A DNA stretch of 64,000 nucleotides, taken from positions 25,159 through 89,158 of the forward strand of contig CAXGUD010000014.1 in NCBI GenBank assembly GCA_964012805.1, written 5' to 3'. The stretch's first letter is position 1, and every line of letters starts with the position of its first letter. This document shows positions 15,193 to 60,588 of this stretch, piece after piece. The DNA comes from an uncultured Bacteriovoracaceae bacterium. GTDB lineage: Bacteria > Bdellovibrionota > Bacteriovoracia > Bacteriovoracales > Bacteriovoracaceae. A program made the translations under genes and the position numbers. The notes under the pieces were generated by a model. The model saw only the letters and a list, made by a program, of their open reading frames with translations, was not told where the DNA came from and did no database searches.

Positions 15193-18100
15193 TTAGCTCT
15201 TTGAGAGGTTGTGATGCTCCTTTATTTTTTCACAAATGGCGTCCGTTTCCATTGAAGTTAATTCAGAAGGCTCAATCACATTTGGAAAAACTTTTGGAAG
15301 CTCTTTAATATGTTCAAATAAAAGAAGGTTTTTATTAGCACCAACCTCATCGATTTTCCTGACAGGAGTAAAATGTGGCACTGTTTGAAGGACCTCAGGG
15401 GCTTCATGAAGGATTTTATAAATACTTTTCACAATATCAAAAAACCTGTCCAGCTCTTTCTTCGTAAAGCTTTCCGTCGGCTCAACCATTAGCCCATAAA
15501 CCTCAGGAAAAGCAACTGTTGGAGCATGCATTCCGTAGTCCAAGAAAAGTTTTCCAACTTTAGCAATAGTCTGTGCCTTAGGCGTTCCCTTTTGTTCTAT
15601 TCTTTGAAAATCATCCTCACTCAAAGTAATGATAAATTCATGCATCCTAGGTACGCTTTCGCAGCCGCTAGGCAATGTGGGATAAACCTCTTTTAGCTTT
15701 TTGTATAAGTATTTTGCAGCAAGCACAGAAACCGCTGCCATCTTTCTTATACCTTCAGTTCCCAGAAGCTTCATATAAGTAAAGGCCCTTACCTTATGGG
15801 CAAAGTTTCCATAATGCCGGTGAAAGCTTCCAATAGAGTTCTTTGGTTTCTTTGTTGTAAAAAGGCCATCGACCTTATCAATTTGAACACCTGGAAGAAA
15901 ATCAAGAAGTTTTTCGCTAACTGCAACGATTGCATCTCCTGGGCCGCCGCCACCATGGGGAATCGTCCAAGTTTTATGAAGGTTATTATGGACTGCATCT
16001 ACTCCGAGAGCGTTAAGGTCAACCCAGCCAGCGATGGCATTCATATTGGCGCCATCCATATAGACAAGGCCACCAACCTCATGAATCTTATCTGCCATTT
16101 CTTTAAAATTTGTTTCAAAAATTCCCGCTGTATTGGGGTTTGTCACCATGATCCCAGCAATTCTTTTCCCATATTTCTCAATCATGGAATAAAATTGTTC
16201 CAGGTCTATTTCACCTTTATCATCTGAGTCAATCGTTACGATCCCACATTGAACTCCGTCTTTAATTTTTGTTTCAAAACCTGCCATAGAAGCAGTTGCT
16301 GGATTTGTCCCATGAGCACTTCTAGGAATAAGGATGACGTCTCTTGTCTCACCTTCTCCATTTGAGCGGTGGTAAGCTTGAAACATCTTAATTCCAACTA
16401 ACTCTCCTTGGGCTCCAGCAACAGGTTGAGTTGTTACCCCGGGAAGACCTGTTACTTTTTTAAACATCTCTTGAATCTCATAGAGGACCTCAAGACTTCC
16501 TTGAGACTCACTAAGAGGAACTTGGGGGTGCAAATCTGTAAAGCCAGGTAAAGAAGCTGCATAATCATTGATATAAGGATTGTATTTCATAGTGCATGAC
16601 CCTAAAGGGTAAATGCTGTCATCGGGACTTACATTTTGATTTCCAAGGTCAGTGTAAAATTTTTTCAAATCCTCTAGAGAAAATTGAGGAAGCCCTACTT
16701 CTCCACTCCTCAGAAGATCAGAAGGTATTTCAGGAATTTTAAAAGAAGCATCACCCTTTTTTTCGCTTGGAAATTCTTCAACAAAAAAAGCTTCAAGAGA
16801 TTCTAGGTGAGAGTCTTCATGAATATCTGAAAAGGATAATAAAATTAATTGACGTTGATTATTGATCTGCGGAGTGAGATTCACTCCTAAATCTATTCCC
16901 TTATTTTTAGCGCTTTCAAGAAGTTTAGCGGCTTCAACATTAACCTCAAGAGCAACTTCATTGAAAAAAGGTGTCTCAGGATAAGCTAGAGAAACGCCTT
17001 CTCTCTTTAAAAGGCGGGGTATTATTTGAAGTGCATTTTGCCTTCCTTTTTGACAAGACTCTTTCATTCCCTCTTCGCCTCTAGCAAGCATTCCGGCCCC
17101 TGCTAAAGTGGCGAGAAACGACTGATTTGAACAAATATTAGAGGTCGCTTTCTCACGCCTTATATGTTGCTCCCGAGTCGAAAGGACCATAGCTAAACAC
17201 TCTTTGCCTTCAACATCTTTGGTCTTTCCTACATAGCGACCAGGAGTCGACCGAATACCATTTTTATTTTTTGAATTGTACCTTACTCCAAAAATACCTA
17301 AACCTGGCCCTCCATAGTTTGGACCAATGGCCAAATGCTGACCTTCTCCGACAATAATATCGACTCCCTGGCCTTCAGAGCCAAATCTCGATGGGGGCTT
17401 TAAACCACCCGTGGCCAATAACATTGGGTCAAAAATAGCTACAGAGGGTACTTTTAAAGAGGCTGCAAGATCTGTAAGGACATCAACACTCTCTAAAAGC
17501 CCTAGAGAGTTTACTTGAGGAAAAATAATTCCTGCCAACAATTTATCGTTAGATAGACGTTCTGCTTTTCCCTTAAGATCTTCAATGGATGTTAGACCTG
17601 TTTTGTTATCAACTGGAACCCATTCCACCAGAACGCCCGTCTCCTTAATAAGAGTTTCCACAACTTCCTTATCTCCGGGAAAGATGCTTTCAGAAACAAG
17701 AACAGTCGTTCCTTTTCGGTGGAGCCTTAAACAGACGTTCAAAGACTCCGCCAAACAAGTGGACCTCTCATAAAGGGAGGCATTAATGGCTTCAAACCCG
17801 GTCAATTGACTTAAACAGGAGGAGTAAACCCAGAGCGTTTGCAATGTTCCCTGACTCCTTTCTGGCTGATAAGGCGTATATGCTGTTGTCAGACCTCTGA
17901 TAGAGCTCACGTAGGGAATAAGTTCATGAACTCTGTATTGGGCCAGCCCTTGACCTAAAAATGAAGTGTTGATCTTGTTATTATTTGCAAGTAACTCCAC
18001 TTGCTTCAACGCCTCTTCGTAGCTCAGACTACGACACACAGAATAAGTCGATTTGTCGAATTTAACTTCATCAGGAATATGGGAGAAAAGGTCTTCCAAT

Positions 18101-18225
18101 TTTGAAAGCCCAAGCTCACTTAACATCGCCCCTATTTCCTCATCATCCGCTGAGATAAAGTATGGTTTTAACTCCCTTTCTAGTTTTTCAGGATCATAAG
18201 GTAGCTTTTCAAACCGAGAGGTCAT
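15193..18225 (-). CDS. gcvP: Glycine dehydrogenase (glycine cleavage P protein), single chain of GcvPA+GcvPB type
   Basis: TAYTPYQPE.SQG.LQ, REQHIRREKATSNICSNQ, YPLGSCTMKYNP, PLP Lys in NLHKTWTIPHGGGGPG; SD AAGGA before ATG 18225. Confidence 0.95.
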   Translation of the reverse strand: MTSRFEKLPYDPEKLERELKPYFISADDEEIGAMLSELGLSKLEDLFSHIPDEVKFDKSTYSVCRSLSYEEALKQVELLANNNKINTSFLGQGLAQYRVHELIPYVSSIRGLTTAYTPYQPERSQGTLQTLWVYSSCLSQLTGFEAINASLYERSTCLAESLNVCLRLHRKGTTVLVSESIFPGDKEVVETLIKETGVLVEWVPVDNKTGLTSIEDLKGKAERLSNDKLLAGIIFPQVNSLGLLESVDVLTDLAASLKVPSVAIFDPMLLATGGLKPPSRFGSEGQGVDIIVGEGQHLAIGPNYGGPGLGIFGVRYNSKNKNGIRSTPGRYVGKTKDVEGKECLAMVLSTREQHIRREKATSNICSNQSFLATLAGAGMLARGEEGMKESCQKGRQNALQIIPRLLKREGVSLAYPETPFFNEVALEVNVEAAKLLESAKNKGIDLGVNLTPQINNQRQLILLSFSDIHEDSHLESLEAFFVEEFPSEKKGDASFKIPEIPSDLLRSGEVGLPQFSLEDLKKFYTDLGNQNVSPDDSIYPLGSCTMKYNPYINDYAASLPGFTDLHPQVPLSESQGSLEVLYEIQEMFKKVTGLPGVTTQPVAGAQGELVGIKMFQAYHRSNGEGETRDVILIPRSAHGTNPATASMAGFETKIKDGVQCGIVTIDSDDKGEIDLEQFYSMIEKYGKRIAGIMVTNPNTAGIFETNFKEMADKIHEVGGLVYMDGANMNAIAGWVDLNALGVDAVHNNLHKTWTIPHGGGGPGDAIVAVSEKLLDFLPGVQIDKVDGLFTTKKPKNSIGSFHRHYGNFAHKVRAFTYMKLLGTEGIRKMAAVSVLAAKYLYKKLKEVYPTLPSGCESVPRMHEFIITLSEDDFQRIEQKGTPKAQTIAKVGKLFLDYGMHAPTVAFPEVYGLMVEPTESFTKKELDRFFDIVKSIYKILHEAPEVLQTVPHFTPVRKIDEVGANKNLLLFEHIKELPKVFPNVIEPSELTSMETDAICEKIKEHHNLSKS

Positions 18226-18358
18226 AGACTGTTCCTTTTTCAAAGGTTATAAGGAGTTTTGTCCCTAATGGGTCATAAGTTACTTATTAAAAACTTATGT
18301 TATTCATTTTAAAACAATTAACTACCACGATTAACGGGCTGTATCTACAAGTTTTAAT

Positions 18359-30498: not shown

Positions 30499-31746
30499 TT
30501 AAGATTCTTCTTCCTTTTTTTCCTGAAAGGGAAGAAGGATCTTAAAGCAGGTTTGAGGACCATCCACAAGCTTAAGGCTCCCATTATGATTTTCAATAAT
30601 ACTTTGGGAAATACTTAAACCTAAGCCTGTCTTCTTGGGAATTTCTGTTGAAAAAAAAGGCTCAAATATTTTCTCCCTTATAGACTCAGGGATTTCTTTT
30701 CCAGAGTCTGAAAATAGTACTTCAATTTCTTTATTTGATTTTTTTGATACCACAATTTTTATCCAAGACTTATCTTCACCTCGTCCATATTCAAAGCTAT
30801 TTATAACTAGATTTGAGAAAGCCTGCTGCAATTCAACTTTTCTTGCATGAACGGTAAGGCCACCTTCACACTGAACATTGATTTCATAAGAGTAATTTTT
30901 AAGTTTCTCCAAATAAAGCTCAAAAGAGTTTAAGATTATTGGTTTCAAATCAATAGTTTCAAAAGGATCATGAGAACCATCTTTTGCAAAATTTCTCAAC
31001 TCTTTTATTATCTTTGTTATTCGATTCGAGTTATCTTTTAATTTGTCAGCAACATCAATCAAAGAATCTTCGACTTCCTTTGCTACCTCATTTTTTTTTA
31101 GAATTTTCTTTAGGGTATAAATTTGTCCTACGATAATTGTAAGGGGGTTGTTTATTTCATGAGATACGCCTCCGGCCATCTCACTCAGTGTCGCCATTTT
31201 TGAGGCATTAAAAGACATCATAACTTTTGAATCCGGAAAAATATCCGGTGTACTTTTTTTTAAACCCTTTAAATTAATTAAAGTTAAGCATGGACCTACA
31301 AAGAAAAAAACTTTATAAATTACTTCCCACTCCCTTTTAGATAAAAGGGCCTCAGTATACGAAGAAACATCACCACCACTCTCAAACACTATAAAATAAA
31401 AAGATGTAATTAAAAGAGGTAAGAATACTAGGTAAAAGTGTCTTATCCCTTTTAAAAAGGCACTAAAAAAAGGTAATAAAAATGCGAAGAAAAGGTATGG
31501 AGAATTTAATTTTCCAGTATTCCAAAGACAAATTATCCAAAAAACCAACGATGAAATGATCCAAGTTTGATAGATGGCCTCTGTTTCTTTTTTAGATTTC
31601 CATGTCCATAGTCCGCTTGCAAGTAATAAAACAACATAAAAAAAAGATAATGTACTCAGATTAGGTTGAAGAGATAAAAGATTTAAGCCGACCAGAATGC
31701 CCAAAAAACCGTAGTAGATGAGGATTCCAAAAAAGAACTTTCCCAT
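30499..31746 (-). CDS. Membrane sensor histidine kinase (class I)
   Basis: About 5-6 TM segments; GGVSHEINNPL H-box; NLVINS, DSG, FEPFFST, TGLGLSIS. Confidence 0.92.
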   Translation of the reverse strand: MGKFFFGILIYYGFLGILVGLNLLSLQPNLSTLSFFYVVLLLASGLWTWKSKKETEAIYQTWIISSLVFWIICLWNTGKLNSPYLFFAFLLPFFSAFLKGIRHFYLVFLPLLITSFYFIVFESGGDVSSYTEALLSKREWEVIYKVFFFVGPCLTLINLKGLKKSTPDIFPDSKVMMSFNASKMATLSEMAGGVSHEINNPLTIIVGQIYTLKKILKKNEVAKEVEDSLIDVADKLKDNSNRITKIIKELRNFAKDGSHDPFETIDLKPIILNSFELYLEKLKNYSYEINVQCEGGLTVHARKVELQQAFSNLVINSFEYGRGEDKSWIKIVVSKKSNKEIEVLFSDSGKEIPESIREKIFEPFFSTEIPKKTGLGLSISQSIIENHNGSLKLVDGPQTCFKILLPFQEKKEEES

Positions 31747-31762: not shown

Positions 31763-34700
31763 TTAAGCTACATTAGTCGACTTAATTGTCAAAACAAACT
31801 CAGTTCCTTTACCAAGAGTCGTCCTTACAGATACACCACCACCTAGTTTTTCAAGGTTCTTTTTGACAATATCCATTCCAACGCCTCGTCCTGAAAGTTC
31901 ATCAACACTATCTTTCTGGCTAAAGCTTGGAAGGAAGATGATATCCATAGCTTCCTCATCACTCATATTACTCAATTGATCCTGGTTATAAATACCTTTC
32001 TCAAAAGCTTTTTTCTTTAAAATATCCACATCAATTCCAGCACCGTCGTCTTTGATCTTTATTTCTACATAGCTGATATCAGGTTCATTACAAGTTACTT
32101 CGATTTTACCTTGCGGTTTTTTACCTTTTTCTCTTCTTGCATCCTGTTCTTCAATACCATGATCGATAGAGTTTCTAAGAAGGTGGACAAAAGCATCTTG
32201 CAACACATTTAGGGATTCTCTATTAAGAGTTATTTCATTTCCTTGAATAATGAAGTCCACATCTTTATTCAACTTCGTAGAAATGTCCATAACCATCGAC
32301 TTAAATTTTTGAAGAGAAGGTATAACTGGTATATCTGTCAACCTTTCAGCTGCAATCCTTATCTCTCCAATATTTCCGTCAATAACAGTTTGATTAAGCC
32401 TCTTTAGATTTCTAAGGACAACAGGAACCATCTCAACTTTACTAATCTCTTGATCTTCATCATCATCGTCTTTTTTCTCTTGATAAAACCCATTAAGGAG
32501 TTGAGAGAAATCGATAAGCTTTAAATAAAGATAGTCTGAGTTCTCTTCAAAAAACTTTATAAGAAGACTAGCAACTGGATCACCGTCTTCAATCAAGGCC
32601 CTTGTCTTGTCTGGTAAATCATTCACTATTCTAGTTGTTCTAAAGTCTGCCAATATCATCTTAATCTTAGGTAAGGTGCTTTCATCTGGGCAAATGAAGT
32701 AGTTGAAAAAGTTGCTTTCACCATCATCGACCAAATATTTTCCAGCTTCCTTAAAAAGATCGCCTGGATCCTCTTTTGAGCTATTGATCCTTTTCAAAGT
32801 TTTAACGAGTATTGAATTAGAACTTACACCTTTAATTTTCTCTTGAATTTTATGTATATCCTGGGCCAAGTCATTCATTTCATTAAAAAACCGCTTATCG
32901 CTATCTGACTTTCTAACATTGTCATAATCGAGGCGGCAAGTAAGGGCAAAGTAAAGCCAAAGCTCTCTTACTTGAAAACGAATTCTCTCTTTATTTTCCA
33001 AAAATTTCTTTGGGCCGGATTTGATTATTCCAAAGATATCACTGAAAACCCTGCTTAAAAAATGAAAGTTAAGCCTTCTACATTCAGAAAGAATTCTTTC
33101 CAGCTTTATAACCGAATCTTCCATTTCAAAGATATGATCAATTCCTCTAGAAAAGTCATAGAAATTTTTAAAAATTTCTGACCAATCATCACATTGTTTT
33201 GTATAAGGCATATTCATGTCTGATTGTTGATAAATAGACCTTACAATATCTTTAATCTCAACATAGTTTCCAATAAAATCCTTACTAAACTCTTCAAGAT
33301 CAGAATTTCTGAGATCTTCAAGGTTATTGAAAGACCCTTCAAATTGGTGAACCATTTCTGAAACATCCAATCGATTCATGGATCTTAAAGATCCTTTTAG
33401 AGAGTGAGTGTTTCGTTTTAGAACTGAAATAATATCATCTTTAATATCTTTTTCCTGAACTTCAACAAAAACTTTCTTCCTTGTTTTACCTGGTTGATTA
33501 GCATCAAAAAGATGCTCTTTTCTCGTAATGTTTTTTGAGATCAACTGGTCGAGGTTAACTGTGAAGTTTTGTATTTCTCCAACAAGTTTTTTCTCAAACT
33601 CATTTTCAATTCTAAAGACTTTCTTTGCCAAGCTCCCATAATCGTTAATTTCAGAATTAATTTCATAAAGTTTTGAAATAATCGGATTGAAATCTTCTCT
33701 TGATATAGCTTTTCCCTCAGAAACTGATTTTCTTATTTCGGTCACATGACTTTCGGCGATATGTGTAATACTTGATATTGAGAAGAAGTTGAATGCTCTT
33801 GAATTTCCTTTAAGAGTATGGAGGTAACGAAACATTTCTGTCAAAACATTCGAGTCCGTAGGTGCAGCTTTGGCCAAAACCATCGTATCCTCAACAAGCT
33901 TTGGTGCACTTTGAAGAAATTGAGAAATATCTTCAATATCCAAGTTTGCCATTTCTGTAATAATTGAGATGTTTTTCTGGTTGGCCTTCTTCTCTTTTTC
34001 AACTTTAGCAGCAAGTTTCTCTCTCTCAGTTATATCTTCAACGATAAACATAAGGTTTTCTAAATTTTCATCTTCATCCCATAGTGGTGTGTAAGAAATT
34101 GAAAAGACGCGATCCTCTTCCTTCTCATCAACGATTTTTATATATTCCATTCTAGGAGCCAAGTGCTCCTCCATTAATAGGTATTGGAGCTCATTTTCCC
34201 CAAAGATAGCAAAAAGAGCACTTTTTATATTAGAGAACTGTTCTGACTGTCTATTTACATCTTTATATAGTGTTTCAAGAATATTTTCCCCAATTACTTC
34301 CTGCCCAAATACTTCATTAGTATAGGCAGAAACAGGACCAATAATTTCAAGACTTTCATTCACTGAAAAAACAGCTTGCTGCATATTATTAAGGAGGTTT
34401 GAAACTTTTTCTTTCTCTTCTTCAATTTCTTTTGTAGCTTCTTTGACTTTATCTTCCAGGTTTTCTGCATAATCTTTTAACTTTTCGTGAGAAACTTTCA
34501 GTTTATCTTTCATACCATTAAATGAGATGACAACTTCCTCTAGCTCATCTTTTGTATTTGATTGTTTCCTTTTAAGTATAAGACCTTCACCACTTAAGTC
34601 ATCAAGGTCAAGAGCTGAAGCATAGCCAGCCATATGCGAAAGATGCCTAGAAACTAGACTCCTAAACACAAAGAAAAGAAGAAATGTTGTTGCAACTACC

Positions 34701-35248
34701 TGAGATACTTGAATAATCAATTGGGTAATCATCTGTTTAACGAGGGTGTCCCTGGCCACTTTAGTACTTGCCGAAATAACAAGGAGTCCAACCTTTTCCG
34801 CTTCCGCATCTTCACCAGCATCAGGGTCTTTATACATAACATTAATTTTGCTTTCCTGTAGATCTGCACCCCAATCTTCTTTTTTTAAGTCCGTAGTCTC
34901 TTTTACGTAATTTGGTTTTGGTTTTTTTCCTTCTTCAAGCTCTTCTACACCATCCATATCATAGAGTTTGGCCTGAACATTAACTCTATCTACGATACCT
35001 TCTAGGCCCTTATTTGTTTGGTCCTCATCCTCTGTGTAGAGAGAAGTTCCAAGCGTGGCACCAACAGACCTTTCTATCCTTTCAAAGCCTTTTTTAATTG
35101 CCTCCAAGTTCTCTTGCCAAGCCTGTTGAAGATTGTACCCTGAAATTACAGCCGCAATAGAAAAGTTGCCCAAGACAACGAATATAATGAGTTTGTTCGC
35201 TATCGAAGTACTTCTTCTATTATCTATTTTTTCTTCTTGGTCACTCAT
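31763..35248 (-). CDS. Membrane-anchored CheA-like histidine kinase: 2 TM-HAMP-PAS-Hpt-Hpt-HATPase, no CheW domain
   Basis: Two TM helices; HAMP DELEEVVISFNGM; Hpt FRYLHTLKG and RNTHSLKG; CheA-type HLLRNSIDHGIE, DDGAGID, SGRGVGMD; protein ends directly after the ATPase domain. Confidence 0.88.
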   Translation of the reverse strand: MSDQEEKIDNRRSTSIANKLIIFVVLGNFSIAAVISGYNLQQAWQENLEAIKKGFERIERSVGATLGTSLYTEDEDQTNKGLEGIVDRVNVQAKLYDMDGVEELEEGKKPKPNYVKETTDLKKEDWGADLQESKINVMYKDPDAGEDAEAEKVGLLVISASTKVARDTLVKQMITQLIIQVSQVVATTFLLFFVFRSLVSRHLSHMAGYASALDLDDLSGEGLILKRKQSNTKDELEEVVISFNGMKDKLKVSHEKLKDYAENLEDKVKEATKEIEEEKEKVSNLLNNMQQAVFSVNESLEIIGPVSAYTNEVFGQEVIGENILETLYKDVNRQSEQFSNIKSALFAIFGENELQYLLMEEHLAPRMEYIKIVDEKEEDRVFSISYTPLWDEDENLENLMFIVEDITEREKLAAKVEKEKKANQKNISIITEMANLDIEDISQFLQSAPKLVEDTMVLAKAAPTDSNVLTEMFRYLHTLKGNSRAFNFFSISSITHIAESHVTEIRKSVSEGKAISREDFNPIISKLYEINSEINDYGSLAKKVFRIENEFEKKLVGEIQNFTVNLDQLISKNITRKEHLFDANQPGKTRKKVFVEVQEKDIKDDIISVLKRNTHSLKGSLRSMNRLDVSEMVHQFEGSFNNLEDLRNSDLEEFSKDFIGNYVEIKDIVRSIYQQSDMNMPYTKQCDDWSEIFKNFYDFSRGIDHIFEMEDSVIKLERILSECRRLNFHFLSRVFSDIFGIIKSGPKKFLENKERIRFQVRELWLYFALTCRLDYDNVRKSDSDKRFFNEMNDLAQDIHKIQEKIKGVSSNSILVKTLKRINSSKEDPGDLFKEAGKYLVDDGESNFFNYFICPDESTLPKIKMILADFRTTRIVNDLPDKTRALIEDGDPVASLLIKFFEENSDYLYLKLIDFSQLLNGFYQEKKDDDDEDQEISKVEMVPVVLRNLKRLNQTVIDGNIGEIRIAAERLTDIPVIPSLQKFKSMVMDISTKLNKDVDFIIQGNEITLNRESLNVLQDAFVHLLRNSIDHGIEEQDARREKGKKPQGKIEVTCNEPDISYVEIKIKDDGAGIDVDILKKKAFEKGIYNQDQLSNMSDEEAMDIIFLPSFSQKDSVDELSGRGVGMDIVKKNLEKLGGGVSVRTTLGKGTEFVLTIKSTNVA

Positions 35249-35287: not shown

Positions 35288-35641
35288 TTAGCTTAATAGC
35301 GTCTCAACGACTTTAAGAAATTTTGGTTCGGAGATTGGTTTTACAATCCAAAATGAAACTCCGACCTCTTTTCCTTTTCTCTTTAACTCAGGATCAAACT
35401 CCGTTGTCACCATCATTATTGGAGGTGCTTCCAGCCCTTCCTCTCTTATTTTTTGAAGCATTGAAAGACCATCCAAATTGGGCATATTTAGATCTGTTAT
35501 GACAAGATCAAAGGTTTCATCTCTAATTAATTGAAGCCCTTCCAGTCCATCAGTCGCTTCCCTGATGTCATAATCTTCCTCTAAAAGGTTTTTTAGCTTT
35601 TTTCGAAAATCCTTTGAATCTTCTACAAGCAGAACTTTCAT
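35288..35641 (-). CDS. Stand-alone receiver (TTE/W-x2-KP subtype)
   Basis: VLLVEDS, TDLNMPNLDG, MVTTE, FWIVKP; SD AAGGAG before ATG 35641. Confidence 0.9.
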   Translation of the reverse strand: MKVLLVEDSKDFRKKLKNLLEEDYDIREATDGLEGLQLIRDETFDLVITDLNMPNLDGLSMLQKIREEGLEAPPIMMVTTEFDPELKRKGKEVGVSFWIVKPISEPKFLKVVETLLS

Positions 35642-35826: not shown

Positions 35827-36225
35827 ATGGCCGCAATATTAATTGTTGATGACTCTTCATCTACAAGGATACAACTCAAGAATTTTTTAGAGCCTCATAA
35901 GCACACTTGCACTGAAGCAGTTAATGGTTTAGATGCCTTAGAAAAATTAAATAATGGACCTATTGACCTTATTATTTGTGATCTTAATATGCCTGAAATG
36001 GACGGGATCGAGTTTATAACCAGGCAATCTAAAAACGAAAAGTTTAAAGACATCCCAACGATTATGTGTACAACTGAAACAATCAATAAGAAAACCGATG
36101 AGGGCAAAGCTCTTTATGAAAAAGTAAAAACTTCAGGTGTTGTCAAGGCCTGGATTGTTAAGCCTATTACCCCCAAAAAAGTGAGCCTAATACTGAATTT
36201 TCTTGAGAAACTAAGCCTCAGTTAG
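35827..36225 (+). CDS. Stand-alone receiver (TTE/W-x2-KP subtype)
   Basis: ILIVDDS, CDLNMPEMDG, MCTTE, AWIVKP. Confidence 0.9.
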   Translation: MAAILIVDDSSSTRIQLKNFLEPHKHTCTEAVNGLDALEKLNNGPIDLIICDLNMPEMDGIEFITRQSKNEKFKDIPTIMCTTETINKKTDEGKALYEKVKTSGVVKAWIVKPITPKKVSLILNFLEKLSLS

Positions 36226-36240
36226 AGAGAACTTCTGCTG

Positions 36241-37728
36241 TTACCTTGATTTTAGTTCATTTCCATCAAATACGTAAACGGTTTCATTACCATCATAATG
36301 AGTTGATAAGTTTACTGGTCTTTTCCACAAGGCAAAAATATTTCTCATAGTATCGGCGCCTAGACCCATATCGAGGTCCACCCCCTGGTGGACATGTCTG
36401 AGAAGGATTTCTCCCCTATTACCGTAGTTGGATGTTTCAATTTCTATAACAGGACTTCCAAAATTGGTTAGTTGGGCCAGTAACTTTTCCTTTATTTTTG
36501 CAAATTCCACGGAGTTTATTTCATTCCGTCCAGTTCTTGGGTTAAACCGATAAGTGAATAAACTTTGCCTCTCACAAAAATCTTGAGTGAAGTATTGATC
36601 AATAAAGGTTATATCGTTATGACTTTTACGAACCTCAAATATCTTTTCTTTTCCTAAATTTAATTCCTTATCCCATCTGTTCTTTTCAACCATATCTTTG
36701 CAATCTTCAAACTCTTTCCCAAAACGACCAGTATCCCACCTAAATTCAATATCTCTAAAAAGCTCAATCCCTATTTTGTAAGGGTTAATCTGACGTTTAC
36801 TCATCGCCATGACACCAGCGTGTTGATCTGCAAAGTCAATTACTTCGCTTGATTTCAATGCTTTTTGGGTCATAATCTTTGAGTGCCAATAACTGGCCCA
36901 CCCTTCATTCATAATTTTTGTCAGACGCTGAGGAAGAAAATAATAAGCTTCTTCCCTCAAGATCCCTACAATATCACTTTCCCACTCCTCTAGCGGGGCA
37001 TAATCCATAATAAACCTCATGATATCACGCGTGGGTAACTTAGAAGCTCCATGGCCTAACTTATCGTTCTTTTCTTTTTTCTTATTCTTCTTCCTGCCTT
37101 TTTTAAAAAGTTTTGAGTCCATGAATGACTTTAAGGCCTGACTCCTTTCATCCTGGAGATCACCCCCTTCCAAACCTTCATAATCATCGTCATCATCCTC
37201 ATTAATTTGCTTTTCAAACAATACATTTGTATCGAGAAGATTTTCTAAAGACAAGACGCTATCAATGAAAGCTTCAACTCTGTCCTGTCCAAACTTTTCC
37301 ATATACCTTCTTATTTTAGTTCCATGATTGGCCATCACATCCATCATATTTTTATTTGTGTGGTGAAACCAATAATTATTTTTAAAAAAGTCTGCATGCC
37401 CATAAACATGGGCCATAACAAGCTTTTGATCAACTATATTATTAACGTTCAATAGATAGGCGTAACAAGGGTTTGTATTAATAACCATCTCATAAATTTT
37501 TGACAATCCATAAGCATAATTTTTTGAGAGCTGATCATACTCCATACCAAAGCGCCAATGAGGGTAGCGGTTCGGAAATCCTCCCTGAGCAGCAAGAATA
37601 TTAACTGTATCATAATCGCAAACTTCAAAACATACATCATAGAAATCAAGGCCGTAACCTAAAGCATAGCCTAGGATTTCCTCTTTTAACCTCAGAAGCT
37701 CTCCTGAAATAGGCTTTGTTCGGTTCAT
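36241..37728 (-). CDS. spoVR: SpoVR/YcgB family protein
   Basis: RYPHWRFG, KIYEMVIN, AHVYGHADFFKNN, TKIMNEGWASYWH, NPYKIG. Confidence 0.95.
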   Translation of the reverse strand: MNRTKPISGELLRLKEEILGYALGYGLDFYDVCFEVCDYDTVNILAAQGGFPNRYPHWRFGMEYDQLSKNYAYGLSKIYEMVINTNPCYAYLLNVNNIVDQKLVMAHVYGHADFFKNNYWFHHTNKNMMDVMANHGTKIRRYMEKFGQDRVEAFIDSVLSLENLLDTNVLFEKQINEDDDDDYEGLEGGDLQDERSQALKSFMDSKLFKKGRKKNKKKEKNDKLGHGASKLPTRDIMRFIMDYAPLEEWESDIVGILREEAYYFLPQRLTKIMNEGWASYWHSKIMTQKALKSSEVIDFADQHAGVMAMSKRQINPYKIGIELFRDIEFRWDTGRFGKEFEDCKDMVEKNRWDKELNLGKEKIFEVRKSHNDITFIDQYFTQDFCERQSLFTYRFNPRTGRNEINSVEFAKIKEKLLAQLTNFGSPVIEIETSNYGNRGEILLRHVHQGVDLDMGLGADTMRNIFALWKRPVNLSTHYDGNETVYVFDGNELKSR

Positions 37729-37730
37729 AT

Positions 37731-38840
37731 TTATTTACCTTTCCCTAAAAAGTCTTTTATCGAGTCTAAAATGGCGGACTTATTCTTTATTTTACTTAAG
37801 ATAACAGAGTCTGATTCCTCTCCGTATTTGTTAAAAAGGTCCTTATAAAACTGACCTGAACCATAGCGGCTTTCAACCTGCCCATAACAAAAAACGTTTG
37901 AATCAGGAATAATATCTTTATCTAAGAGGTCCAAACAAAGCTTTGTATCATCTGTAGACCAATTATCACCGTCAGAAAAGTGAAAGGGGTATATATTCCA
38001 TTCATTAGGATCGTAATCTTCCTTCATGATATCTTTGCATAGTTTCAAGGCAGACGAAATTAATGTTCCCCCACTTTCTCTAGTCCTAAAAAATGTTTTC
38101 TCGTCAACTTCTTTTGCCGTCGCATCGTGAATAATATAGCGGATATCAATCGATTTATACTGGCTCTTTAGCCATAGGTTAATCCAAAAGCTCTCTGTTC
38201 GAACAATTTCTTTTTGCTCATCGCCCATAGAACCAGACACATCCATCATATAAATAACAACTGCGGAATTTTCGAATTCTTCTTTTGAACTAAAAGACCT
38301 GTATCTAAAATCTGGTCTGGTGGGAACAATAATTGGGTTATTAGGATCATAACTACCTGTTGTTATTTGACGCTTTAAAGCTTCTCGATAACTTCTCTTA
38401 AAATGTTTGAGGGAGTCTGGCCCGACCATACCAATACTATTGTATCGGTCAACTGTCGTTTGGATGGTCTTCTTTCCTTTAGGCTCAATATTTGGAAGCT
38501 CTAATTCTTCTCCAAGAATACTCGCTAGTTCCTCTAAAGTTAGCTCTATATCAAGCTCTTTCTTTCCTTCCCCTTCACCAGCTTCTCCTTGACCTGGCTG
38601 ACCTTCCTCTCCCTCTACAGGATCGCCAGGTTTTCCTTCGCCCTGACCAAGGCCACCTTGCTGTCTTTCACCAAATTTAAATCTAGGAGTTTCAATATGG
38701 GGCATGGGGATTTTGTAAGCACCATTTCCCTTAGGATGAGGCATTTCTCCGCTTGAGACATATTTCCTGAGATTATCCCTAACTTTTCCTTTAACGACTT
38801 TTCTGAACCGAGCATGATCTCTTTTAATTGGGTGACCCAT
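37731..38840 (-). CDS. yeaH: YeaH/YhbH (DUF444) vWA-like protein
   Basis: Gly-rich linker, [15 protein letters not shown] (MIDAS), [19 protein letters not shown]. Confidence 0.93.
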
Positions 38841-38869
38841 TCATTCCCCTGGGTTTAATCTTAATCTAC

Positions 38870-40924
38870 TCAAGCCTTAGCAGAATCACCTTTAGCAAAA
38901 ATAGAGGCCACAAAGTTAAGTGCATCTGTGGCGCAAATTTCACAGTAACCGTGATTTTTCATGAGCCTCGCTTTAACTACGTCTATTTTTTCTTGAGTTT
39001 CCTTATCAACGACTCTTGAAACAATTGTCGTTAATTTTATTGAATCTTTTTGATCTTCAAAAAGCTTAAGCTCTAATGCTCGGTGAAGCCTTTCGTTCAT
39101 CTTAAAGTCAAAGGTTTTTCCTTCGATTGCCAAAGCCCCAATATAATTCATTATTTCACGACGGAAATCATCTTTTCTCGACTCAGGTATATCTATTTTT
39201 TCTTCGATAGACCTCATGAATCTTTCATCAGCATCCTCTAATCTATTTGAGTATTTATTTCTAATTTTTTCCTTTTGGGTGTGGGCCTTAACATTATCAA
39301 TATAGTTGGCACAAAGAGTTTGTATAGCTGTCTCATCTACACTAATGGCCTTCTGAACATCATTTTTAATAATGTCCTCGTATTCTTGTCTCGTTATGGC
39401 GAGCATTTCTTTATATAAATCGTATTGTTCTTGACTTGTTATAAGACTGTGGTGCTTTAAACCTGCTTCTAACTCGTTAAAAACCATAAAAGGGTTTAAA
39501 CAACCAAGGTGTCCATTTTTAACAAGTGCATTCGATACTTTATCTTGAATGTATCTAGGACTAATTCCCTCGAGTCCTTCTCTAATAGCTTCCTTACGAA
39601 GCTCCTTTACATTATCTTCATTGTAACCAGGTAAGGTTTTACCATTATAAAGCTTTAACTTTTGAAGCTTTGTTAAGTCGGCTTTTTTAGGGTCTTCAAG
39701 CCTCGTCATAATGGCCCAGGTAGAAGCCATCTCCAATGTGTGAGGAGCGATGTGAATGTGAGGAATTTTATCTGAGTTAAAATCTTTTTTATAAATTTTT
39801 ACTTCGTTTTCCAGCCTTGTAATATATGGGACATCTATCTTAACAGTCCTGTCCCTCAAAGCCTCCATAAACTCATTATTTTGCAGCTTTTTGAATTCTG
39901 GCTCATTTGTATGGCCCAAAATAACTTCGTCTATATCCGTTTGGGAAAACTTCTTAGGTTTAATTGACTGTTCCTGACTCGCTCCCAAAAGGTCATAAAG
40001 AAAGGCCACGTCCAATTTAAGCATTTCTATAAATTCAACAATCCCTCTGTTAGCAATATTAAACTCGCCATCAAAGTTAAAGGCCCTAGGATCTGAATCT
40101 GAACCGTAGTGAGCTATTTTTCTATAATTTATATCACCTGTTAACTCTGTTGAATCCTGATTCTTTTCATCTTTTGGCTGAAAAGTGCCTATTCCGACTC
40201 TATCCTTTTCGGAAAGGATAAGTCTTTTAACTCTTACGTGATTGAGGACTTTTTTCCAATCACCATCATACTTTTTCATATATTCTGTATAAATATATCG
40301 ACTTGCTGGATCCAGCTCACCTTTTATAGAAATCTTAAACCCATCAAGACCCTTATTAATCTCTTTGACAAAATCACCCCTCACACTTTTGGGAATAAGT
40401 TTCAGAGGTTCATCATGCATAGGTGAAGGAAAAACCTTCTCTCCTCCAAGAATTTCACTTCTTTCTTCATCAAACCATTCGTATGTGTAAAGGGCCCCAT
40501 CATCAGTCTTCGAATAATGCTCAAGTCCCTTTTTTAAAAGACGCGAAATTGATGACTTTGCAGAACCAACAGGTCCATGAAGTAGTAAAACCCTCTTTTC
40601 TGTCCCATACCCAGCTGCTGCGGACATGAAGAAATTGACTAACTTCATCAGGTGGACATCGATACCATAAACGGCATCCGCCCCTTTTTCAAAAGGGTCA
40701 TTAAAAAAGTGGTACCTAGTAATTTCTTTTTTGTATTCTATATATTTGCTTGTCCCATAGGATTGAATCATGTCATTGATTCTTTGGAAGCAATTCCTTG
40801 TAACTCTTGGATTTTCAGCAACAATATCGAGGTACTCTTGAAAAGTCCCCTCCCAGTGCAAGTGAGCGAAATCTTCTAGTTTGTAATTTTTGTCCATAAA
40901 ATCAGTTATTTTTAACTTGGCCAT
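38870..40924 (-). CDS. prkA: PrkA/YeaG AAA+ ATPase / serine protein kinase
   Basis: [59 protein letters not shown]. Confidence 0.95.
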
Positions 40925-41132
40925 TGGAAGAGTACCCCTTGAGATGAGACTACAATAAACCACACTCCTCTCATTATAACCCATTCCAGAATAGAACATA
41001 GGGTAAAACTTTTCAGGGTTGTTCGCTAAATTTCTGATGGGGAAGCAGACTAATTCTATCCACTTGACAAGAATTTTGTAGGACCGGAAAATGAATATGC
41101 TAAGGCTTTTCTATCCAAAGCGAGATTATTTT

Positions 41133-47252: not shown

Positions 47253-48722
47253 ATGAATAAACTTCCCTCTCCTATTCATTCTCTTAAAGATCATTATGAC
47301 GTTGTCGTCGTTGGCGGCGGTATTGTCGGAGCAGGTATTTTTAGAGACCTTTCGCTTCATGGCCTTCATTGCCTTTTAATTGATAAAAAAGACTTCACCT
47401 CTCAAACGAGTCAGAGTAGTTCAAAAATGCTTCATGGAGGCATCCGCTACCTGGAAAAACTTGATTTCAGCCTCGTATGGGAAGCACTTCACGAAAAAAA
47501 CCTCTGGTTGGAACTTGCTCCACACCTCTGCTACGAGAGCTCTTTCCACTTTCCTATTTATAAAGGATTTAATAAACCTTTGTGGATGGTAAAAATTGGA
47601 CTAAGCCTTTACGACTTTTTATCCAGTTACAAAAACACTCCACATAAAATCCTATCTAAAAAAGAAGTCCTCAACTCTATCCCTTCACTTAATAACGAAA
47701 ACCTTACTGGTGCAGGTCTTTATTACGATGCAATCGTAGATGACGCGAAATTAACTCTTGAAGTTATTTATGATTCCTTAAAAGAGGCATCGGGAAGCCA
47801 AGCGTTTTCTCATATAGAACTTGAAAAGCTGGAAGTACAAGGCATAAAGAATAACCTTCAATTAAAAGATTCTCTCAACTCCGAAGTGACGAAAACAATT
47901 TCGGCGGATGATGTTATTTTTTCAGTAGGGCCTTTTACAGACAATCTTTTAAGTAAATTTAAAGACTTAAAGTGGGATCCTGTTCTATCGCCTTCAAAAG
48001 GAAGTCATATATGGCTTCGAGCAGACGCCCTCGATATAAAAGGTCCTCTCTTACTAAGAACTAAAGACAATAGGGTTTTCTTTGTTATTCCTTGGCCAAA
48101 TGCAATCTTAGTTGGTACCACCGAGACAAAAGTAGAAGGCAACTTTTTTAACTTATCCCCAACCCCTGACGAAGTTCACTATCTAATTGATAATATTAAA
48201 AAATATTTCCCCAAAATCATGCTCTCCGAAAAAGATATAATTTCAAGCTTTTCAGGAGTGAGACCCCTCATCAAAGACAGCAATAGTTCAGAATTAGGCG
48301 AAGTAAAAAGAGAGCATAAAGTTTATCAACCCAAACACAACATTCACGTTATTGCGGGAGGTAAATACACCACCTTCCGCACCATGGGCCAGGAAATATC
48401 AAGAAAAATAGTCCTTAAAAAAGAGCTCTCCTATAACTCAAACATGACCAAACAAAAATTAAGACAAAAATCCTGCATCCTTCCCTTCAAAGAAGATGAA
48501 ATAACAGCGGACACAATTTTTAACATTATTGAAAAAGAGAATGTAAGAACTTTTGACGACCTTCTAAAAAGAAGAATCGGATGTCCTAGCCCTAGACACT
48601 GGAACAAAAAAACTTCACTAGTCGATTTATTTAAACCCATTTACCCCGAACTAAAAAACGTTCTTTATTTCTCTGATGAAGATAAAAAGCTTCTGGAGGT
48701 TGAAAGTGATGTTAATCATTGA
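47253..48722 (+). CDS. glpD: FAD-dependent glycerol-3-phosphate dehydrogenase
   Basis: VVGGGIVG, TSQSSSKMLHGGIRYLE, KGSHI, LVGTTE, SGVRPL, GGKYTTFR. Confidence 0.9.
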   Translation: MNKLPSPIHSLKDHYDVVVVGGGIVGAGIFRDLSLHGLHCLLIDKKDFTSQTSQSSSKMLHGGIRYLEKLDFSLVWEALHEKNLWLELAPHLCYESSFHFPIYKGFNKPLWMVKIGLSLYDFLSSYKNTPHKILSKKEVLNSIPSLNNENLTGAGLYYDAIVDDAKLTLEVIYDSLKEASGSQAFSHIELEKLEVQGIKNNLQLKDSLNSEVTKTISADDVIFSVGPFTDNLLSKFKDLKWDPVLSPSKGSHIWLRADALDIKGPLLLRTKDNRVFFVIPWPNAILVGTTETKVEGNFFNLSPTPDEVHYLIDNIKKYFPKIMLSEKDIISSFSGVRPLIKDSNSSELGEVKREHKVYQPKHNIHVIAGGKYTTFRTMGQEISRKIVLKKELSYNSNMTKQKLRQKSCILPFKEDEITADTIFNIIEKENVRTFDDLLKRRIGCPSPRHWNKKTSLVDLFKPIYPELKNVLYFSDEDKKLLEVESDVNH

Positions 48723-49080
48723 GAATTTTTTTTAGGGCCAAAATGAGAAGTTTTTTTGAAATTGGCTTAGTCATCCATGCACGGATGCCAAGTTGCTTTA
48801 TATCATCCCTTACAGACTCAAAGTTCTCTGTCGTACACATAACAAGAGGAATATCTTTAAGACCATCTTCATCTTTAAGTGCAAAAGCAAATGTTATCCC
48901 GTCCATAACAGGCATATTTACATCACATAAAATAAGAGAAACATCTTTGTTATTTCTTAAAACGCTTAAACCGTCTTCACCGTCTCTCCCCTCTAAAACA
49001 GTGTAGCCTGCCTCCTCAAGAAACATCCTCATTTTAGCTCGTGTTGGCTGGGCATCATCAATAACTATAATCTTCGCCAA
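48712..49080 (-). CDS. Stand-alone receiver (TTE/W-x2-KP subtype)
   Basis: IIVIDDA, CDVNMPVMDG, MCTTE, AWMTKP. Confidence 0.9.
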   Translation of the reverse strand: MAKIIVIDDAQPTRAKMRMFLEEAGYTVLEGRDGEDGLSVLRNNKDVSLILCDVNMPVMDGITFAFALKDEDGLKDIPLVMCTTENFESVRDDIKQLGIRAWMTKPISKKLLILALKKILND

Positions 49081-49128
49081 AATCGGCTCCTTTTAAAAGT
49101 ACAACCAAGAGAAAGTTAATATGGGGGG

Positions 49129-50463
49129 CTATCCTTTTTTAAATCTAAGTATAAAAGTTGCGCCCTTCATATCTTCTTCATTTTTAAGAATCAACCCACC
49201 TTCCATCTCTATCATGAAGTTAAATGCTTGATGCAGCCCTATTCCTAAATGACCTGGCTTTGAAGAGAATCCGCAATTAAAAATTTTCCCTTTCACATCT
49301 TGGTCAATTCCACCGCCATTATCATTTATTTCGACTTCTATAAAGTTATCATCCTCTTTCGAAATAATTGTAATTGTAGGCGATTCCTTGTCTTTAAGGG
49401 CTTCAACAGAATTTAAAATAACTTGTTTAAAAGCATATGTTGCTTTTGACTCATTCAGATTCACTTTTATAGAAGTATCTATTTTATTTAAAATTGTGAC
49501 CTTATGTTCAGCTATTTTTTCTTTTAACTCATTTAAAGAAACTTCAATGGCCTTTGCAACAAGCTGCTCAGCTTTTTTAATTTTTACATTTGAGAACTGC
49601 TCCTGCTCACTTAGAAATCGTCCGAGAAAATCAACTTTCGTCCCAATAAAATCTGCATTGGAAATAAGGTCGTTATCCCGGTTAAGGTTCGCATTTGATA
49701 TCTTTTTGAGAAGCTCTGAAAGCTTCATAACATCTTTCTTAAAGCGCTCGCCATCATGGTCTTTTTCAAAGTCGGCAATTTTTTCCCCTAAAGTTTCATA
49801 TATTTTCTCCATATATTTATGGATTTCATTAGAGCTGAGGTCATTTCGCATTTCCCCCAGCGAGTAATTAATTGGTCCCAACATATTACCCATCAAGTGG
49901 AGTACATTAGACACAATTTCTGCTTTCCCCGATTTATTTGCCAAATCCAACATTTTCTCTTGACTGGCCTTCAGCTGAGCGGTCCTCTCCTCAACGATTT
50001 CTTCAAGGTTCGTGCTGTAAGTTTCCAACTGTTTTTGTCTATGAACAATTTCCGTTACATCTTTTCCAATAACTAGATAAAGATCTCCGAGCTCAGGTCT
50101 CTTGAGATAAACATATACGTCCCATAAGTAAACAGAAGGTATTTTATAGGCTTTTGAAATAGTTTTTATTTCCAACTTCACCTGGCTGGTAAAATTGCTA
50201 TCAACTCTACCAGCATTCTTTAAAAATTTAGAAAGAAAAGCCCATTTACTATCTTCAAAAAGCAATTTGAAATTCGTATATATTAGTTTTTCTTTGTCAA
50301 CTTTGAGAACTCTTGCCAGAGTGTCATTCCCTCTAAAAATAGTCCCATCGGCCCTTAAAATAGCTATTATAAGAGGCAATGAATCAAATATCTGCTCAAC
50401 ACTTTTCTTTGAGTCTTCAAGGATTTTTATTAAGTTCGAGGTTGCTCTAAGTTCTTTGCTCAT
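49129..50463 (-). CDS. Cytoplasmic PAS-domain histidine kinase
   Basis: PAS-like N-terminus, coiled coil LEEIVEERT, H-box NVLHLMGN, QVILNS, DNGGGI, GFSSK, GIGLH. Confidence 0.85.
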   Translation of the reverse strand: MSKELRATSNLIKILEDSKKSVEQIFDSLPLIIAILRADGTIFRGNDTLARVLKVDKEKLIYTNFKLLFEDSKWAFLSKFLKNAGRVDSNFTSQVKLEIKTISKAYKIPSVYLWDVYVYLKRPELGDLYLVIGKDVTEIVHRQKQLETYSTNLEEIVEERTAQLKASQEKMLDLANKSGKAEIVSNVLHLMGNMLGPINYSLGEMRNDLSSNEIHKYMEKIYETLGEKIADFEKDHDGERFKKDVMKLSELLKKISNANLNRDNDLISNADFIGTKVDFLGRFLSEQEQFSNVKIKKAEQLVAKAIEVSLNELKEKIAEHKVTILNKIDTSIKVNLNESKATYAFKQVILNSVEALKDKESPTITIISKEDDNFIEVEINDNGGGIDQDVKGKIFNCGFSSKPGHLGIGLHQAFNFMIEMEGGLILKNEEDMKGATFILRFKKG

Positions 50464-50476
50464 AGGATATAAATTC

Positions 50477-50503
50477 TAAAGAATATAATTTTTTTTCCGA
50501 TTA
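50477..50503 (+). promoter_or_regulatory. Sigma28-like promoter for receiver-cheX
   Basis: TAAA-N15-TCCGATTA. Confidence 0.55.
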
Positions 50504-50552
50504 ATAGACTGATGATAACACGGTCGAGAAAGATTTAAACTAGAGGCAAGTA

Positions 50553-51041
50553 ATGAAAAAAAAGATACTTATTGTTGATGATGACCATGACATACATCCA
50601 TTAATTGTAAAGATTATTGAAAAGGTCAATAAACAAGGTGGCAATAAGTTCGGAGAGATAGATAATTTGCTTGCAGACTTGAAAGGTCAGGAAAGTAAAG
50701 ATTCAAATACAAGTGATGATGCCAATGTTGAATTCACTTTTGATCATGCTTTCCAAGGAGAAGAAGCGTTAAAATTTATAGAACAGGCAAACAGTAACCC
50801 TTACGATGTTGTTTTCATGGATGTGAGAATGCCACCAGGAATTGATGGTATTCAAACCATTAAAGAAGTAAGGAAACAAAAACCTGAGTATCCTTTCATA
50901 ATTTGCACTGCTTACATGGACTACACATGGGAAGAAGTCGTCAAGATTTTAGGCTCAGAAAGCAATATAGCTTTGATGAAAAAACCTTTTACCAAACAAA
51001 AAATTCTTGAAAATCTTAAAACCCTTTTTAAAGAAGGGTAA
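50553..51041 (+). CDS. Stand-alone receiver with insertion after helix 1
   Basis: ILIVDDD, AFQGEEA, FMDVRMPPGIDG, ICTAY, KKPF. Confidence 0.9.
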   Translation: MKKKILIVDDDHDIHPLIVKIIEKVNKQGGNKFGEIDNLLADLKGQESKDSNTSDDANVEFTFDHAFQGEEALKFIEQANSNPYDVVFMDVRMPPGIDGIQTIKEVRKQKPEYPFIICTAYMDYTWEEVVKILGSESNIALMKKPFTKQKILENLKTLFKEG

Positions 51042-51054
51042 AAAAAGTTGGCCT

Positions 51055-51630
51055 ATGGGCGTTGAAAAAGAAAACTTTGAATCCCTTATCGAGGTATTTC
51101 AATCGTCAATTAAGAGGAACTTTGAAGCCTATTTTGCTGATGAAGAATTTCAAATGGAAAGGGTCAAAGACAGAAAGTTAGGTGAAGTAATCTCCTACAA
51201 TAACCTGGCAATGATCACTTTGACCGGAAGGGGTGTGAACGTAAATTTCAAGACCTATTTCGAGCAATCTTTCTGCAGAGAATTAATTAAAAAAGTTTAT
51301 AAAGAAGAAAAATATTGGAATGACCCCAATTTTGTAGAGGATTATATTAAAGAATTTTGTAACTTAGTTGGGGGCAGCATTTCTAGTTTGGCAAAGAAGG
51401 AACAAAATGAGCTTGGAAAAAGTATTCCTATGGTGCTCACCGGTTTTGATGAAATTTACTTCCCCGTAAACAAAATACTATCCGAAATGGTGTACGAGTG
51501 GGAATTTACCAAAGGCCATATAAAGTTTATGACTCGTATGGAAATATCATCCCTTAATATAGAAGAAGTTTTCAAACTTTTCGAAGGTGCTCAGGATGCT
51601 GAAGAAGTCCAGGACCTTACATTCCTGTAA
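51055..51630 (+). CDS. CheX-like phosphatase
   Basis: DYIKEFCNLVGG (E-x2-N catalytic motif), SIPMVLTG. Confidence 0.7.
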   Translation: MGVEKENFESLIEVFQSSIKRNFEAYFADEEFQMERVKDRKLGEVISYNNLAMITLTGRGVNVNFKTYFEQSFCRELIKKVYKEEKYWNDPNFVEDYIKEFCNLVGGSISSLAKKEQNELGKSIPMVLTGFDEIYFPVNKILSEMVYEWEFTKGHIKFMTRMEISSLNIEEVFKLFEGAQDAEEVQDLTFL

Positions 51631-60527: not shown

Positions 60528-60588
60528 AGTACCTAGGAAAAAAGGCTATTTTATTAAAATTTTAACTATTTTTTAGAGATTGTTTTTG

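Follow-up and report, generated by a model that had tools for sequence, protein, structure and literature searches.

The open reading frame (ORF) at 31763..35248, on the minus strand of a 64,000-nucleotide stretch of contig CAXGUD010000014.1 from an uncultured Bacteriovoracaceae bacterium (hereafter the window), codes for a 1161-residue membrane kinase built on the phosphotransfer (P1) and ATPase domains of CheA, with no CheW domain and a predicted dimer interface, which probably phosphorylates histidines in two histidine phosphotransfer (Hpt) bundles of its own and passes the phosphate to a CheY-like receiver encoded directly upstream. CheA is normally cytoplasmic and dependent on methyl-accepting chemotaxis proteins (MCPs) and CheW. 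The kinase fits the class III histidine kinases, which reportedly join a sensor to an Hpt and a CheA-type ATPase, and lack both CheW and a dimerisation domain. To judge from its domains, it works like CheA but is not a CheA, since the CheA core is P1-P3-P4-P5, with P5 present in all CheAs and no sensor in CheA, according to the available text of PMC10782961.

All four motifs reported in the earlier note lie where it placed them, with FRYLHTLKG at residues 473-481 (window 33806-33832) and RNTHSLKG at residues 612-619 (window 33392-33415) in the two Hpt bundles, and RNSIDHGIE (residues 1025-1033) and SGRGVGMD (residues 1119-1126) in the ATPase. Pfam matches Hpt in two stretches (E 5e-13) and HATPase_c over residues 1018-1157 (E 1e-16), with no match to CheW, HisKA or H-kinase_dim in the kinase at E<=0.01, and none of the 38 HisKA matches in the genome falls inside this ORF; a class I DHp is thus not found here. 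The nearest likeness of the ATPase and of both Hpt bundles is CheA, with the best Foldseek matches of the ATPase being T. maritima CheA P4 at a root-mean-square deviation (rmsd) of about 2 Å. Both Hpts are predicted to be four-helix bundles in the AlphaFold2 (AF2) model (mean per-residue confidence, pLDDT, 85; a single-sequence AF2 run on the whole chain reached pLDDT 34 and was set aside). The chain stops four residues past the ATPase, with no P5/CheW domain, as the earlier note had it, and its end is a natural C-terminus, not a truncation, because relatives end at the same place and the only two CheW matches in the genome are both on another contig.

At the N-terminus, hydropathy recovers both transmembrane (TM) helices of the earlier note, and the segment between them resembles CHASE5, which Pfam matches above its cut-off in four close paralogues (E 2e-9 to 1e-13). 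The proposed HAMP domain stands by way of two close paralogues (E 1.7e-4 and 3.6e-5), with no Pfam call in the kinase itself; the PAS-like region is likewise matched more strongly in two paralogues (PAS_9, E 3e-5) than here. The stretch of roughly 250 residues described as helical and unassigned is indeed predicted to be helical, although a third four-helix bundle (residues 682-781) and a half-size P3-like element had been overlooked.

Hpt1 and Hpt2 both carry the His/Lys/His/Glu set of CheA P1 domains. The set is intact in Hpt1 of all 42 aligned relatives and in Hpt2 of 34, where it persists together with G619 at a mean column identity of only 34%. H477, K480, H496 and E499 align with T. maritima P1 His45 and Glu67, the latter enhancing the nucleophilicity of His45 according to the available text of PMC3904827, and Hpt2 keeps the Glu67 equivalent in 39 of 42 rows. 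Furthermore, comparison of the Hpt2 bundle with a profile of 85 canonical CheA P1 domains gives a probability of 96.8% (E 2e-10; hhalign). Purifying selection acts on all six cytoplasmic parts, with ratios of nonsynonymous to synonymous substitution (dN/dS) of 0.045-0.13 over four orthologue pairs, taken from the congener G151 only, dS to the other congener, G152, being saturated; Hpt2 has a dN/dS of 0.045 and is 100% identical to its G151 orthologue at a synonymous divergence (pS) of 0.71. The second motif therefore belongs to an Hpt of P1 type, in agreement with the earlier note, and the doubled phosphorylation domain likely gives the kinase two phosphate sites.

Whilst Pfam finds neither H-kinase_dim nor HisKA, the kinase is predicted to dimerise through a remnant of P3 of about half the usual size. 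About 33 residues separate the strand at residue 938 from the DIP motif, compared with 59 in canonical CheA, and structural alignment to CheA 1b3q begins at 1b3q residue 298. Two copies of residues 894-1161 are predicted to form a homodimer through residues 936-977 with a score of 0.49, compared with 0.00 for the best of three controls. The mark that this score passes was also attained for 20 of 30 solved pairs and for 1 of 23 single chains. At least 50% of contacts recur between runs and the partner pLDDT is at least 75, although resemblance to CheA dimers of solved structure may account for the pass.

The receiver upstream of the kinase gene is one of seven receiver ORFs in the window, the number given in the earlier note, and is 100% identical in G151 and 94% identical in G152 at the same position, with the order of the two receivers, the kinase and the downstream class I kinase kept in both congeners. 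Stand-alone receivers lie within 600 bp of 14 of the 74 CheA-type kinases in the genome, compared with 17 of 391 other long ORFs, with five of six long CHASE5-clade paralogues having one upstream on the same strand, and 13 of 15 kinase-adjacent receivers fall in a single TTE-type clade. In two studies, RNA-library contigs cover the kinase, and in one of them they run on into the upstream receiver gene, which fits transcription; the downstream class I kinase and the divergent receiver are not covered, which proves nothing.

Together, these features suggest how the kinase may work. The earlier note's view that the protein is its own receptor agrees with what was found, because a sensor is fused to the chain, P5 is lacking and the genome holds no MCP. 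A periplasmic ligand at the CHASE5-like domain would shift the TM-HAMP-PAS coiled coil, which would run directly into Hpt1, and this shift would set how often a P1 bundle reaches the ATPase, replacing receptor array and CheW. The P3 remnant would join two ATPase domains, with the third bundle, the helical domain and the acidic linker serving as a spacer through which the ATPase could reach each of the two P1 bundles, probably in trans, as CheA does. H477 would be the obligatory site and H615 likely a second, optional substrate of the ATPase, giving doubled phosphate capacity or a second outlet. Phosphate would likely pass to TTE-type single-domain receivers and be removed by CheX-like phosphatases encoded elsewhere in the genome.

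Scoring of all 109 candidates in the source genome (G000; 4.47 Mb, 130 contigs, 100% complete, 1.8% contamination) gave 74 CheA-type ATPase matches, comprising one with CheW, three fragments and 70 full-length CheW-less kinases; CheA-type kinases are about double the HisKA matches in number. The CheW-less design is thus not rare, the unusual features being the doubled P1 and the expansion. An Hpt bearing its His is present in 68 of the 70, and 22 are long forms, 20 of which retain the Hpt2 His. Sensors among the 71 kinases scanned include 35 7TMR-DISM and 8 CHASE5 domains, weak matches included. Receivers give 154 matches, 87 of them stand-alone (39 with an xTE motif), with six CheY-type receivers, and CheX-like ORFs number 19, with 18 of them at E<=4e-29 and some beside other paralogues. 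No MCP was found by MCPsignal match, by tblastn with four MCP queries or by hairpin-tip motifs, and CheR and CheB exceed their cut-offs only within ORFs of at least 600 residues. Flagellar genes are present, including FliM with an N-terminal LSQDEVDALL, nine Flagellin_N matches and export genes, as is pilT (TIGR01420 over cut-off, contig C22). The roughly 70 paralogues with their different sensors likely form an array-free sensing network, the most probable output of which would be motility behaviour through pili or the flagellum.

G151 (72% complete) and G152 (68%) hold 47 and 64 CheA-type ATPase matches, with no MCP in G151 and one MCP ORF, in a che cluster, in G152. Elsewhere in the order, 126 of 150 other genomes have a CheA-type match, with top counts of 19 and 10, the rest at most 7 and some 0 (21 candidates scored per genome; four genomes rescored in full gave the same counts), and MCPs are present in 119 of 151 genomes. 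Many near-complete, FliM-bearing genomes of the family show neither an MCP nor a CheA-type kinase, among them G006, G009, G011, G020, G027 and G028. The long form is rare, being found in at least 4 of 401 phylum genomes with five candidates scored per genome. Five of ten relatives looked up were named long forms, four from Bdellovibrionota/Oligoflexia and one with a functional name only, and the named full-length relatives come from Bacteriovoracales/Halobacteriovoraceae assemblies; a search of genome contigs for related loci returned, among the matches listed, mostly ordinary CheAs. An ATPase tree (FastTree, midpoint root, 25 of 73 CheW-bearing database rows kept) groups the long forms with low deep support, and no donor or order of events is claimed from it. 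Labelled sequencing runs holding this DNA are marine or seawater metagenomes.

Several findings weigh against the proposed reading of the kinase. Its own CHASE5 (E 0.0014) and PAS (E 0.005-0.008) matches are weak and fall below the Pfam cut-off. The Hpt2 histidine, kept in 15 of 32 distant long-form representatives, is lost in the other 17, with the full set in only 11, and Hpt2 is therefore not needed family-wide. No stand-alone receiver lies within 600 bp of 60 of the 74 kinases, making the neighbourhood pairing the exception, and the kinase-adjacent receivers fall outside the clade of the conserved CheY of the CheY-Hpt-CheX locus and so do not tie the kinase to the flagellar motor. CheX is absent next to the kinase gene, the nearest being 16 kb away. 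The RNA-library contigs may include DNA, and a single transcript is beyond what such contigs can show. Literature searches found no biochemistry on the kinase or any of its relatives.

The losses of the Hpt2 histidine, which extend to 2 of the 22 long paralogues in this genome, together with the insertion in Hpt2 and its lower core conservation (0.48 versus 0.62 for Hpt1), would suit a kinase that uses H477 alone, with Hpt2 a decaying duplicate kept structurally, like the third bundle; His-less extra Hpts are described for R. sphaeroides CheA3 and P. aeruginosa ChpA in the available text of PMC10782961. We consider such a single-site kinase unlikely, given that the Hpt2 set and G619 persist in otherwise variable sequence and that Hpt2 is unchanged in G151 despite the synonymous divergence, whereas the third bundle, in which no surface residue is conserved, illustrates the appearance of a bundle kept for structure alone. 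The earlier note had proposed instead that Hpt2 could pass phosphate on to another receiver or serve as a sink, in which case the ATPase would label H477 and back-transfer from a receiver alone would fill H615, followed by drainage or transfer to a second receiver. A scheme of phosphate flow is known for ChpA. Two related receivers flanking the kinase gene, conserved in three genomes, are in line with such a relay, as is the unequal use of Hpts by multi-Hpt CheAs such as ChpA noted in the available text of PMC10782961. However, the Glu that Hpt2 so consistently keeps is tied to ATP-dependent labelling, and the kinase has no fused receiver, which serves such relays in >90% of multi-Hpt CheAs according to the available text of PMC10782961. 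The intact set fits a second direct substrate of the ATPase equally well, and with the His absent from over half of the distant long forms the relay or sink is given a low probability. As to a broken or mis-assembled ordinary CheA that has lost its CheW, which the 130-contig assembly might favour, there is next to no chance of it: this candidate is refuted by the conserved C-terminus in orthologues 95% and (in G152) 80% identical, and contigs of the DNA run X5 depart from the region by no more than one letter in each listed piece, selection is purifying throughout, and dozens of paralogues end alike.

A further rival reading is that the roughly 70 kinases phosphorylate the flagellar CheY, directly or via small receivers, in an array-free form of chemotaxis. 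Consistent with this are the absence of MCPs from the 100%-complete source genome and from G151, the FliM, flagellin and CheY-type genes, the diversity of sensors, and the position of the closest paralogue, about 4 kb from a CheY-Hpt-CheX locus; additionally, the CheA-CheW-MCP cluster of the relative G002 has no orthologous counterpart in G000, its two MCPs having no match and its CheA and CheW distant matches only, with most flanking genes present. However, 17 of the 19 other MCP-less family genomes listed and tested (of 31) keep FliM with 0-1 CheA-type kinases, so that MCP loss is common without expansion, and G152 retains its MCP ORF alongside its 64 kinases. No adaptation mechanism is evident, and the kinase-adjacent receivers are not the conserved CheY. 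Replacement of the array in this way therefore appears improbable. The broader proposal, in which the genus has rebuilt its sensing on CheA-derived kinases that are their own sensors (about 70), with about 40 small receivers of TTE type and about 18 CheX-like phosphatases, and with flagellum or pili steered without arrays and a second catalytic P1 that splits or stores phosphate, is possible though doubtful.

Class III loci are said to hold an adjacent single-domain receiver and CheX-like genes, in genomes with pilT. The features found here are an Hpt and a CheA-type ATPase in one chain, an N-terminal sensor, no CheW or P5, a receiver at the locus and pilT in the genome, upholding the class III label of the earlier note. 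In contrast to class III kinases as reportedly described, the kinase has two intact P1 bundles, a third His-less bundle and a 150-residue helical domain, a P3 remnant predicted to dimerise and no adjacent CheX (about 18 CheX-like genes lie elsewhere in the genome), and its host has about 70 copies and no chemoreceptor found. It resembles canonical CheA (T. maritima 1b3q/1tqg) in the His45/Glu67-type set of P1, in the P4 fold and in a strand-plus-hairpin dimer element ahead of P4, but lacks P5/CheW and P2, carries its own membrane sensor and has a P3 of about half size. Tandem Hpt bundles, some of them His-less, are shared with multi-Hpt CheAs such as ChpA, of the type IV pilus (Tfp)/alternative cellular function (ACF) class, and R. 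sphaeroides CheA3, which however keep CheW, need receptors and usually have a C-terminal receiver, none of which the kinase has; multi-Hpt forms make up 18% of CheAs in the available text of PMC10782961. Class I CHASE5-HAMP kinases (for example L022:4188-5642 in G002) have the same type of input module, with a HisKA/DHp phospho-site that is absent from the kinase.

Literature searches found no experimental study of class III kinases and no description of the doubled-P1 variant or of the expansion, although Adebali 2017, Wuichet and Zhulin 2010 and Gumerov 2021 may list multi-Hpt or Bdellovibrionota members; the available texts of MiST 3.0 (PMC6943060), PMC8396549 and PMC12654446 hold nothing on class III kinases. 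The basic design is ordinary for class III; noteworthy are the doubled P1, the P3 of half size and, more than either, the expansion across the genus in a flagellated bacterium with no MCP. Class III kinases pose the question of how a CheA core is switched by a coiled coil rather than a receptor lattice, for which this kinase is a clean test object, with two intact P1 sites, a conserved neighbouring receiver and a confident model. The genomic context is more surprising, namely a flagellated bacterium of 4.5 Mb in which CheA-type kinases are about twice as numerous as HisKA matches and no MCP was found. Should the kinases reach the motor, this would be directed motility without arrays; should they miss it, they still offer an extensive natural set in which to study how dozens of P1 domains that are nearly identical avoid mixing up their receivers.

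Table 1. Features of the kinase and its immediate neighbours (window coordinates).
Feature	Position	Strand	Basis
Class III-type sensor histidine kinase, long (multi-Hpt) form, 1161 aa	31763..35248	-	ORF, motifs, Pfam, AF2 model
TM1, about aa 20-38	35135..35191	-	Hydropathy
Periplasmic CHASE5-like sensor, about aa 39-172	34733..35134	-	Pfam CHASE5 E 0.0014; paralogues stronger
TM2, about aa 176-198	34655..34723	-	Hydropathy
HAMP, about aa 196-250	34499..34663	-	Pfam HAMP in aligned paralogues
PAS-like domain, about aa 282-410	34019..34405	-	PAS_4/PAS_9 E 0.005-0.008; PAS_9 E 3e-5 in two paralogues
Hpt1, CheA-P1 type, aa 436-545; H477 (33818-33820), K480, H496, E499	33614..33943	-	
Hpt2, CheA-P1 type with insertion, aa 549-675; H615 (33404-33406), K618, H634, E637	33224..33604	-	Conservation, hhalign, dN/dS
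Third four-helix bundle, lacking the His, aa 682-781; perhaps a decayed Hpt	32906..33205	-	AF2 model; sequence link weak
Predicted helical domain, aa 782-929, then low-confidence acidic linker	32462..32905	-	AF2 model; no Pfam match
Half-size P3-like dimerisation element (predicted), about aa 936-977	32318..32443	-	Predicted homodimer interface, structural alignment
CheA-type (P4) ATPase with N, G1 and G2 boxes; chain end	31778..32326	-	Pfam, conserved boxes, Foldseek
Stand-alone receiver, 117 aa, TTE/W..KP type, 40 bp upstream of kinase, own ribosome-binding site; likely cognate substrate	35288..35641	-	
Divergent stand-alone receiver, same type	35827..36225	+	Syntenic in G151 and G152
Class I membrane kinase (HisKA + HATPase) downstream, kept as a neighbour in both congeners	30499..31746	-	

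The third bundle is possibly a decayed Hpt. Comparison with Hpt1 gives hhalign probabilities of 17.7% and 7.1%, with a reversed profile scoring the same (18.8 versus 18.6), and comparison with canonical P1 gives a score of 15.7 against a maximum of 13.6 in 30 column shuffles, in an alignment that is in register but weak; Atlas matches to Hpt clusters at 0.87 are leads only. This bundle or the helical domain occurs in 57 of the best 144 new representatives, among which, by eye, a His stands at the relevant column in one, the suspicious record P0152. In P0152, a long-form relative, the Hpt2 His motif recurs as 13 near-identical 10-residue repeats over residues 440-570, which is probably an artefact of assembly. 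The ATPase dominated the fold searches, so that residues 682-929 were barely probed.

Elsewhere in the genome, the only CheA with CheW (G000:C58:12277-15306; REC-Hpt-dimer-ATPase-CheW) has a CheW-domain partner, with no MCP, stand-alone CheR or stand-alone CheB nearby. A trio of CheY, a stand-alone Hpt-like protein and CheX lies at G000:C3:9827-11290, with the conserved CheY at G000:C3:10892-11290, and also at L022:10631-12055; the Hpt-like protein reads IIDRVMGS at the position of the His motif and looks His-less. Tandem pairs of CheX-like and soluble class III kinase genes occupy G000:C3:20223-27645, each kinase having a C-terminal tail of 230 residues with no Pfam match, and three CheX-like genes stand in tandem at G000:C3:97634-99576. 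Hybrids joining a class I kinase, one or more receivers and a class III core in one chain are encoded at G000:C4:109624-113682 and C32:8663-12403, and arrays of short ORFs (130-200 residues) with partial MotA/ExbB matches at G000:C4:86260-87759 and at G152:C57:7939-9437 and C90:580-1172.

Within the window, a PrkA/DUF444/SpoVR operon (36241-40999, minus strand) adjoins the receivers and is conserved in both congeners. A second long-form class III kinase (60580-64000, plus strand), with several TM segments, an intact Hpt1 and the Hpt2 His lost, is cut by the contig end, and because it runs off the contig no complete ORF of at least 90 residues is listed beyond 61241. The group at 48712-51630 comprises a receiver (minus), a kinase-like HATPase ORF without HisKA (49129-50463, minus), a receiver (plus) and a CheX-like gene with ExxNxxxG (51007-51630, plus). 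The glycine cleavage P protein is encoded by a single fused ORF of 1016 residues at 15193-18243.

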